From positions 643,393 to 707,392 of the forward strand of contig CAWDGW010000014.1 of the NCBI GenBank assembly GCA_963801995.1: DNA of 64,000 nt, written 5' to 3'. This document shows, piece by piece, positions 60,089 through 61,080 of this stretch. The DNA is from an uncultured Holophagae bacterium. GTDB lineage: Bacteria; Acidobacteriota; Thermoanaerobaculia; Thermoanaerobaculales; Sulfomarinibacteraceae. Both the position numbers and the translations under genes were made by a program. Under the pieces are notes generated by a model. The model made no database searches. It saw only the letters and a program-made list of their open reading frames with translations, and was not told where the DNA came from. Position 1 is the first letter of the stretch, and each line of letters begins with the position of its first letter.

Positions 60089-60122
60089 CCCCCCACCGCC
60101 CGGTCGGTCGGGTCGCGGAGAT

Positions 60123-60220
60123 GTGCAGCCAAGATGGCCGCACCACAATTTGGCACAGCCGATACGAAGGGCGAATCAGCACGGCGGATTTGTGGTGCGG
60201 GCTTCCAGCCTGCACAGCTC
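60123..60220. repeat. Inverted, diverged copy of the junction module of the 162-bp array
   Basis: GTGCAGCCAAGATGGCCGCACCACAAT, a 39-nt loop, then ATTTGTGGTGCGGGCTTCCAGCCTGCACAGCTCC. This is the reverse complement of the array segments ..GGAGCTGTGCAGGCTGGAAGCCCGCACCACAAT and ATTGTGGTGCAGCCATCTTGGCTGCAC. Confidence 0.85.
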
Positions 60221-60270
60221 CACGATCGAGATCGGTTTTCCGAATTCCGAATTCCGAATTCCGAATTCTG
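60210..60270. repeat. 61-nt perfect direct repeat, left copy (includes CCGAATT x4, H2)
   Basis: CTGCACAGCTCCACGATCGAGATCGGTTTTCCGAATTCCGAATTCCGAATTCCGAATTCTG is identical to 60991-61051. Confidence 0.95.
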
Positions 60271-60321
60271 GCCTGCCGGGTTCGCGGAGCAGAAACGCAG
60301 GGGGACAAAGGGGCAGAGGAG

Positions 60322-60996
60322 ATTGTGGTGCAGCCATCTTGGCTGCACACCACCACGGTCGTGTCAGCAGGCTGGAAGCCCGCACCACCATGGGCCCTGC
60401 CATCCTGGCGTTGGAGCTGTGCAGGCTGGAAGCCCGCACCACAATCTGGCCCAGCTGATTGCAGGAGCGAGTCGGCGGGAGAAATTGTGGTGCAGCCATC
60501 TTGGCTGCACACCACCACGGTCGTGTCAGCAGGCTGGAAGCCCGCACCACCATGGCCCCTGCCATCCTGGCGTTGGAGCTGTGCAGGCTGGAAGCCCGCA
60601 CCACAATCTGGCCCAGCTGATTGCAGGAGCGAGTCGGCGGGAGAAATTGTGGTGCAGCCATCTTGGCTGCACATCTCCACGGTCGTGTCAGCAGGCCAGA
60701 GGCCCGCACCACCATGGCCCCTGCCATCCTGGCGTCGGAGCTGTGCAGGCTGGAAGCCCGCACCACAATCTGGCCCAGCTGATTGCAGGAGCGAGTCGGC
60801 GGGAGAAATTGTGGTGCAGCCATCTTGGCTGCACATCTCCACGGTCGTGTCAGCAGGCCAGAGGCCCGCACCACCATGGCCCCTGCCATCCTGGCGTTGG
60901 AGCTGTGCAGGCTGGAAGCCCGCACCACAATCTGGCCCAGCTGATTGCAGGAGCGAGTCGGCGGGAGAAATTGTGGTGCAGCCATCTTGGCTGCAC
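60322..60996. repeat. 162-bp tandem repeat array, ~4.2 copies, hairpin-rich, apparently non-coding
   Basis: Units start at 60322, 60484, 60646 and 60808, with a partial unit at 60970 (exact 162-nt spacing). Copies are near-identical, with a few shared variants in copies 3-4. Confidence 0.95.
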
Positions 60997-61051
60997 AGCT
61001 CCACGATCGAGATCGGTTTTCCGAATTCCGAATTCCGAATTCCGAATTCTG
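60991..61051. repeat. 61-nt perfect direct repeat, right copy (includes CCGAATT x4, H2)
   Basis: Identical to 60210-60270. Confidence 0.95.
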
Positions 61052-61080
61052 CCAACTGCCAACTGCCACCTGCCAACTGC
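61050..61080. repeat. Heptamer repeat H3 (TGCCAAC-type x4.4)
   Basis: TGCCAAC TGCCAAC TGCCACC TGCCAAC TGC, abutting the VWA gene stop codon. Confidence 0.9.

Follow-up and report, generated by a model that had tools for sequence, protein, structure and literature searches.

A probable mosaic cluster of GTGG-tagged extragenic palindromes between two convergent genes of an uncultured Holophagae bacterium

What fills the long gap between two convergent genes in contig CAWDGW010000014.1 of an uncultured Holophagae bacterium? The gap lies at positions 60078-61080 of the 64,000-nucleotide stretch of DNA analyzed here (the window), between the stop codons of a DUF4136 gene and a gene for a von Willebrand factor type A (VWA) domain protein. 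The original prediction, made from the sequence alone, offered three readings of the hairpin repeats found there: a tandem array of structured RNAs, a segment amplified by recombination, and a cluster of palindromes resembling bacterial interspersed mosaic elements (BIMEs) or repetitive extragenic palindromic (REP) doublets forming hairpins (REPINs). The last of these has held. The repeated module is a REP with a GTGG tag. Elsewhere, members of its family lie on both sides of genes for RayT, the REP-associated tyrosine transposase. The locus is very probably a BIME-like cluster of this family that grew through tandem duplication, at the site itself, of a unit of three REPs. Clusters of this sort are well known among bacterial repeats and unremarkable, and the locus is not a new RNA gene.

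The locus consists of 15 copies of one module of approximately 30 nucleotides, in alternating orientation, all within the 880 nucleotides from 60119 to 61000. On its tag strand the module is composed of 5'-TTGTGG, a 9-base-pair G+C-rich stem (GTGCRGSCN), a 3-nucleotide TCY loop, and the complementary arm. The pattern GGNGNTGTGCAG-N9-CNGCACCACAA has 11 sites in the window, in alternating orientation, where none would be expected by chance. A covariance model, R1, was built from 73 module copies, all from organisms other than that of the window. R1 identifies 15 sites in the window, of which 11 are full copies (42.8-44.5 bits) and four are copies of a weaker form, B1 (30.8-31.4 bits). The TTGTGG sequence lies directly 5' of the stem in all 11 full copies, and its positions are invariant or nearly so across the 73 copies from the other organisms.

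The tandem array occupies 60322-61009. Its 162-nucleotide period, first read from the sequence alone, is reproduced by Tandem Repeats Finder (4.2 copies, 98% matches, no indels, score 1278) and by comparison of the units. Each unit contains REP A on the plus strand, REP B1 and REP B2 on the minus strand, and a 38-nucleotide spacer. The A and B hairpins had been taken for different elements, a view that the pattern and R1 do not bear out; A, B1, and B2 belong to one module family. The five REP A copies are at 60319-60352, 60481-60514, 60643-60676, 60805-60838, and 60967-61000 (42.8-44.5 bits, E about 1e-11), and all have 5'-TTGTGG and the hairpin on the plus strand. The hairpin GTGCAGCCATCTTGGCTGCAC is present as predicted, in five exact copies and one inverted copy with one mismatch, against a chance expectation of 0.01. 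The REP B1 copies, with the tag CACCA, are at 60361-60394, 60523-60556, 60685-60718, and 60847-60880 on the minus strand (E about 3e-7). The REP B2 copies are at 60415-60448, 60577-60610, 60739-60772, and 60901-60934, also on the minus strand (44.3 bits). A second sequence, CAGGCTGGAAGCCCGCACCAC, had been described as a GTGC-footed hairpin present twice per unit. It does occur nine times where none is expected, but the first CAGGCTGG... copy of each unit, which is B1, lacks the GTGC foot. B1 is a degenerate module, scoring about 31 bits compared with about 44 for the full copies.

Two further copies stand to the left of the array. REP1 (60119-60152, minus strand, 43.3 bits) is an inverted copy of A of the second, or beta, unit type described below. 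It is 95% complementary to 60644-60681 and differs from the beta-type A by a single change, a G.T wobble when the tag strand is read. REP2 (60186-60219, plus strand, 44.0 bits) has a B-type stem and matches the pattern. Together they form a tail-to-tail dimer with a spacer of about 33 nucleotides. The left flank had been called an inverted, diverged copy of the unit junction, and this was confirmed over 38 nucleotides at 95% and 49 nucleotides at 88% complementarity. A unique leader, read from the sequence at 60271-60318, looks by eye like a diverged, longer form of the inter-unit spacer.

The strand order of the 15 REPs is - + / + - - (four times) / +. A and B1 form a head-to-head dimer with a gap of about 18 nucleotides, while B2 and the next A form a tail-to-tail dimer with a 38-nucleotide gap, predicted to fold as one long imperfect hairpin. 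The inverted pair GCACCACAAT and ATTGTGGTGC, reported to close a loop across each unit junction, does enclose 38 nucleotides.

REPs have been defined by a GTAG or GTGG sequence located 0-2 nucleotides 5' of a stem of 7-20 base pairs with a loop of 2-5 nucleotides (PMC6006769). In the module described here the tag is directly 5' of the foot, the stem has nine base pairs (eight when the final G of GTGG is assigned to the tag), and the loop has three nucleotides. The copies of the window are extragenic. They are no more than 150 nucleotides apart, alternate, and are reiterated, as in the BIMEs or REP clusters of enterobacteria. Inverted doublets able to form one hairpin, as in a REPIN, are present as A/B1 and B2/A, but within the window and about 140 related loci no doublet with its spacer recurs at many sites.

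The module was also sought beyond the window. It is present in at least 120 metagenome contigs by the pattern GTGCAG-N3-RGA-N3-CYGCACCACAA, and the same pattern scan found none in viral contigs. When one representative genome of each species was scanned, the module was found in metagenome-assembled genomes (MAGs) labelled as Planctomycetaceae, Phycisphaerales, Phycisphaeraceae, Sulfomarinibacteraceae, Holophagae (two contigs of one MAG), and Hydrogenedentota. Seven of the 15 matches of this genome scan were set aside as not REPs: L003, L004, L008, and L013 have near-identical flanks, L006 and L011 have no hairpin, and the hairpin of L014 is imperfect. Some other contigs and MAGs do have module loci that are separate from one another (L129, L031, L089, and L012 with L015). 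No genes shared between the first loci and the window were found by tblastx, and all-against-all clustering of the open reading frames (ORFs) of module-bearing loci gave no recurrent neighbor family. The largest clusters of neighboring ORFs appear from their sequences to be widespread protein families, with ABC-type transporters, oxidoreductases, and protein kinases among them. By crude ORF calls, 129 of the 147 modules among the matches listed are not deep inside any ORF.

These other genomes show that the stem covaries, a check that had been proposed with the original prediction. The three inner stem pairs left free by the search pattern are fully Watson-Crick in 134 of the 147 modules, where chance would give about 1 in 64, and at least 10 inner stem types are present among them. 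In an alignment of the module, A1, changes on both sides of the stem occur in 71 cells compared with 18.7 in shuffles, and pairing collapses to 25-49% when the register is slid. At stem position 5, in 107 modules free of ascertainment bias, A-T occurs 37 times, A.C 36 times, G-C 31 times, and G.T once. Over all stem positions of the same 107 modules, the mismatches on the CACAA strand are 54 A.C and four G.T. An A.C mismatch on the CACAA strand is a G.T wobble on the TTGTGG strand, and the hairpin is therefore selected as a single strand with TTGTGG on its 5' side.

The arrangement of copies can be compared as well. A relaxed scan gave 219 modules at 128 loci among the matches listed, with 52 head-to-head dimers (gaps of 0-34 nucleotides), 13 tail-to-tail dimers, 12 head-to-tail dimers, and clusters of three to five modules. 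One locus, L057, carries five REPs in the same orientation at 2142-2318, mostly 30 nucleotides apart. This head-to-tail order is unlike the alternation seen in the window.

A REP family is expected to have a member within 1 kb of a RayT (tnpA-REP) gene, and this was found for the family on contigs of other genomes. The RayT protein of E. coli (NC_000913) was used as a phmmer query against every ORF of the module loci and the window. It matched only two ORFs, one at L106 (E = 2.7e-11) and one at L051 (E = 2.9e-8). Both genes are flanked by modules, with five on one side and three on the other at L051. Both proteins pass the cut-offs of Pfam Y1_Tnp and of the NCBIfam equivalog for REP-associated tyrosine transposase (REP_Tyr_transpos), their sole match among solved structures is 4ER8, TnpA-REP, and both carry an HUH motif (NHVH) and a Y-x3-NP motif. 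The RayT family to which they belong has 6606 members at E <= 1e-10, many of which were named RayT by the Joint Genome Institute. Ten further contigs were taken for four RayT homologues, and in all ten R1 has matches of 28-48 bits on both sides of the gene. The proposed check for a co-occurring RayT-like gene thus gave modules adjoining RayT on both sides in 12 of the 12 RayT contigs examined.

The tag varies with the RayT clade. It is CACAA at L139, whose RayT has 68% identity to that of L051, and CACCA, as in B1 of the window, at L141 (57% identity), while L140 (60% identity) has a GGCAG...CTGCC foot. Away from the RayT gene, R1 has one weaker match at L139 (27 bits) and none at L141. Directly upstream of the RayT gene of L140, at 9296-9968, is a tandem array with a period of about 64 nucleotides that holds at least nine variant REPs (GGCAGCCGGGACGGCTGCC-CCACAA). 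This is a further case of REPs amplified in tandem along with their linker. The RayT-like ORF of L106 (1259-1891, minus strand) carries LPHLPKPGCTYFVTFRLWD, the N-terminal strand motif, at its C-terminal end. From its sequence this ORF looks circularly permuted, or it may join the end of one copy to the beginning of a second copy in tandem.

The same hairpins could belong to tandem structured non-coding RNA genes, or to one long structured transcript, with a role at the RNA level (a small-RNA array, a protein sponge, or a dedicated bidirectional terminator or mRNA stabilizer). Covarying hairpins with G.U-type mismatches on one strand suit RNA as well as single-stranded DNA, and REPs of E. coli stabilize upstream mRNA (background cited in PMC6006769). 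The locus also lies between convergent genes, and a canonical intrinsic terminator was looked for there and none was found. However, Rfam 15 gave no match at the gathering score in the whole window, only chance-level matches of at most 21 bits at E values up to 10, and no promoter-like site was found at the array locus. Modules occur on both strands, with no clear bias in orientation relative to the upstream gene (22 versus 16, by crude gene calls), and the family goes with the gene for a DNA transposase. As the structured strand switches between plus and minus along the array, a single transcript would have only some of the hairpins in the favored form. The RNA array put forward in the original prediction is not supported, and a function of this kind is improbable.

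A protein with 54-residue tandem repeats would also account for a period that is a multiple of three, and in four frames out of six long ORFs extend across the whole array. The locus had been judged non-coding, and codon statistics agree. The codon log-odds are negative in all six frames of the array, at -0.07 to -0.53 per codon compared with +0.22 to +0.39 in the flanking genes, and none of the six has the gene-like pattern of G+C at the three codon positions (GC1, GC2, and GC3). GC2 is 0.60-0.71 compared with 0.45-0.50 in real genes, and GC3 is at most 0.72 compared with 0.74-0.83. Every long ORF runs into the flanking genes, on either strand, and what is conserved across genomes is base pairing and not a reading frame. 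A repeat protein is scarcely tenable. A CRISPR array was ruled out, as the sequences between the hairpins are themselves repeated at 98% identity and are not unique spacers. Integron attC sites were ruled out on anatomy.

How the cluster grew can be read from the variation between its units. Units 1 and 2 differ at one position, as do units 3 and 4, while five positions separate the two pairs (alpha-alpha-beta-beta). This pattern suggests local amplification of the 162-nucleotide unit. Three of the five pair differences convert the B1 stem-loop from GCT-GGA-AGC to GCC-AGA-GGC in units 3 and 4. The variant GGCCAGAGGCCC had been said to lengthen this stem; the length is in fact kept, with a compensatory T-A to C-G change and a change in the loop. 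Both B1 stem types occur elsewhere as natural sub-types. The unit spacers and linkers recur neither in the rest of the window nor at any of about 140 related loci.

The array is bracketed by a 61-nucleotide direct repeat, which is exact, as reported, and has no further exact extension. The first copy (60210-60270, plus strand) starts within the 3' arm of REP2 and includes 4.4 copies of TTCCGAA, and the second (60991-61051, plus strand) starts within the 3' arm of the last REP A. With 27 further bases the repeat forms an 88-nucleotide match at 90% identity (repeat family D9), and within the extension only the inner stem and loop differ. As a mode of growth for the cluster, the earlier idea of a segment amplified by recombination agrees with the alpha-alpha-beta-beta units and the bracketing exact repeat.

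The following course of events would fit a REP cluster of this kind. The hairpin would be extruded in single-stranded DNA, on the TTGTGG strand. RayT may recognize the GTGG guide and the foot of the hairpin, and then cut and rejoin there, which would seed single REPs and inverted doublets in intergenic DNA. A unit of three REPs and a spacer (162 nucleotides) could then have been amplified through unequal recombination or replication slippage between REPs, with two unit types arising first and each being doubled afterwards. A further duplication joined inside a REP stem may have left the 61-nucleotide exact repeat. Tandem duplications mediated by REPs are documented in Salmonella and E. coli. 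Speculatively, the hairpins might block 3' exonucleases or read-through, or serve as a terminator or mRNA stabilizer; a block of this kind is proposed because the cluster sits between two convergent genes.

Several observations weigh against the cluster reading. No RayT gene was found in the 64-kb window. R1 finds no module elsewhere in the window, where its best other match has 12.9 bits (E = 0.1), and because the remaining 63 kb have no REP copy, dispersal within the source genome is not shown. The z-scores of the array fold are modest, at -1.5 to -2.7. The figure of 96% paired for alignment A1 is inflated because A1 was selected for pairing; the unbiased pairing evidence is the count of free pairs in 147 modules and the count of mismatches in 107. 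Lastly, the copy number of the array is that of a single assembly, and a short-read contig stops at the flanking heptamers. This contig (L016, a Logan contig from run ERR11523668) is independent and 100% identical to 61039-62866, including the VWA gene, but it ends inside TTCCGAA arrays on both sides and therefore confirms the strain and not the array.

Some observations would suit a merely local segmental duplication of arbitrary intergenic sequence, or an assembly artefact, with hairpins that matter at this site alone: the linkers of the 162-nucleotide unit are found nowhere else, the module is absent from the rest of the window, and the short-read contig stops at the flanking repeats. Against such an origin, the module is widespread and covarying and flanks RayT genes, and units in an alpha-alpha-beta-beta order with a compensatory change would not be expected from a collapsed or inflated assembly. 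We regard it as very unlikely.

The sharing of the module between distant hosts raises a further point about the REP family. Long contigs of MAGs assigned to different phyla have almost the same 26-nucleotide core. The sequence GTGCAGGCTGGAAGCCCGCACCACAA is matched exactly by this window and by two contigs, one of 219 kb from Phycisphaerales and one of 39 kb from a Holophagae MAG; a 275-kb contig of that Holophagae MAG has it with one mismatch. The family goes together with one RayT clade. It is conceivable, though we hold it only tentatively and think it on balance unlikely, that REPs and RayT have spread horizontally between phyla, or that their conservation is far stronger than the usual view of lineage-specific, vertical descent would allow. 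If so, the array would have arisen here recently, as a local burst in a genome only lately colonized.

The left neighbor of the gap, the DUF4136 gene (59454-60077, plus strand), converges on the locus, matches Pfam PF13590 at 86 bits, and has gene-like codon statistics. The right neighbor (61081-62748, minus strand) also converges on it. Its earlier naming as a VWA gene stands on a match to NCBIfam TIGR03436 acidobact_VWFA at 134 bits, though no Pfam match accompanies it. DUF4136-like coding sequence is present in four paralogous stretches of the window, at 7900-8186, 32566-32780, 47214-47443, and 59895-59932 (repeat families D7, D10, and D12). A direct repeat of about 370 nucleotides at 51988-52357 and 54279-54648 (71-83% identity, 2291 nucleotides apart, families D2 and D11) is probably the trace of two paralogous genes lying side by side.

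The heptamer arrays at the edges of the gap had been counted as part of its structure. They are a separate feature, independent of the REPs and found in intergenic DNA genome-wide, with arrays of the TTCCGAA, CTGCCAA, and ATTGAAR types in many other intergenic gaps of the window. An ATTGAAR array (60065-60097) lies over the DUF4136 stop codon; it forms the inverted-repeat pair I16 with 32976-33008, and the same heptamers occur at 7565, 24527, and 32984. A CTGCCAA array (61049-61080, by Tandem Repeats Finder) abuts the VWA stop codon, and its heptamer recurs at 24759-24812 and 35107-35125. Arrays of three to eight copies are located in the window at 7565-7598, 24527-24557, 24572-24611, 24698-24722, 24759-24812, 25909-25939, 32984-33015, 35107-35125, 46520-46633, 59461-59484, 60065-60097, 60238-60268, 61019-61080, and 62841-62872. 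Their units include CAATCTT/CAATTTT, AACTGCC, TTCCGAA, GATGCGA, GCATCCA, and one 8-mer, AGGGGAGA, and the same few heptamers recur at distant sites of the window in both orientations. CAATCTT/ATTGAAR arrays lie beside three of the four DUF4136-like stretches (7565, 32984, and 60065).

The heptamer arrays resemble the short tandemly repeated repetitive (STRR) sequences of cyanobacteria. They also resemble the intergenic TAACTGA repeats of Beggiatoaceae (PMC4679880), here in a genome of 63% G+C. In the Holophagae MAG MFD09964.bin.1.228, the same heptamers (AATTCGG, GCCGTTG/GCAGTTG, and TTTCAAC) surround the same REP module. The sites are at 4862-5185 and 7650-7688 of L012 and around 2240-2560 of L015, and the two contigs are about 90% identical over about 1.2 kb. 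This sharing suggests that the window's organism is a relative (Acidobacteriota), and the acidobact_VWFA match of the VWA gene agrees with this. Because L016 ends inside TTCCGAA arrays at both ends, such arrays break short-read assemblies of the window's organism. Both the REPs and the heptamer arrays around them interrupt assemblies of this kind, which has a practical bearing on MAG recovery.

Recognition of the locus as a REP cluster explains a conspicuous orphan region of 1 kb and keeps it from being listed as a CRISPR-like array or mistaken for a gene or a new RNA. A REP family with the GTGG tag, and the RayT clade that belongs with it, are also put on record for environmental phyla that have received little study, namely Acidobacteriota, Planctomycetota, and Hydrogenedentota; REP biology has so far been worked out almost entirely in Proteobacteria. 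The covariance model and the argument from strand asymmetry can be reused for annotating such elements.

Among known systems, the closest comparison made here is with the REPs, BIMEs, and RayT (TnpA-REP) of E. coli and Pseudomonas (Ton-Hoang 2012; PMC6006769; PMC2817692). Shared with them are a short extragenic hairpin whose foot has an unpaired GT[AG]G guide on its 5' side, alternating copies at regular spacing in clusters of up to a dozen or so, and a cognate HUH/Y1 transposase gene, present in single copy, with these hairpins on either side. The last of these corresponds to the REPtron arrangement described for REP/RayT systems (PMC6006769) and was found here on the contigs of other genomes. 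The family differs in its TTGTGG tag and GTGCRGSC stem. Its hosts are MAGs of Planctomycetota, Acidobacteriota, and Hydrogenedentota, together with environmental contigs, and not Proteobacteria. It is also sparse near the examples seen, with no copy in the other 63 kb of the window.

A second comparison is with the GTAG-tagged REP superfamily of Di Nocera et al. 2013 (PMC3733652), which includes GTGG variants in Opitutus terrae. That paper describes an unpaired end tag, stems of 6-9 base pairs, and sub-families with alternative complementary stem residues, all of which resemble the present family. It also describes head-to-head, tail-to-tail, and head-to-tail dimers, and clusters of dimers tandemly reiterated with flanking DNA, and the same dimer types and tandem clusters are seen here. 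The strings GTGGTGC and GCACCAC are absent from those of its supplementary files that were searched, and this module does not match the peptides that the paper gives for intragenic REPs of O. terrae and R. baltica. Because the strings are absent and the listed peptides differ, the family is probably outside the 24 GTAG families of that paper. A text search of the literature with strings of the core sequence returned no relevant paper.

The third comparison is with the REPINs of Pseudomonas fluorescens (Bertels and Rainey 2011, PMC3116915), in which two inverted REPs with a short spacer form one long hairpin, as A/B1 and B2/A do here. REPINs replicate as a doublet to many sites of the genome. 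In the cluster described here, by contrast, no other locus examined has the doublet together with its spacer, and growth was most probably by local tandem duplication.

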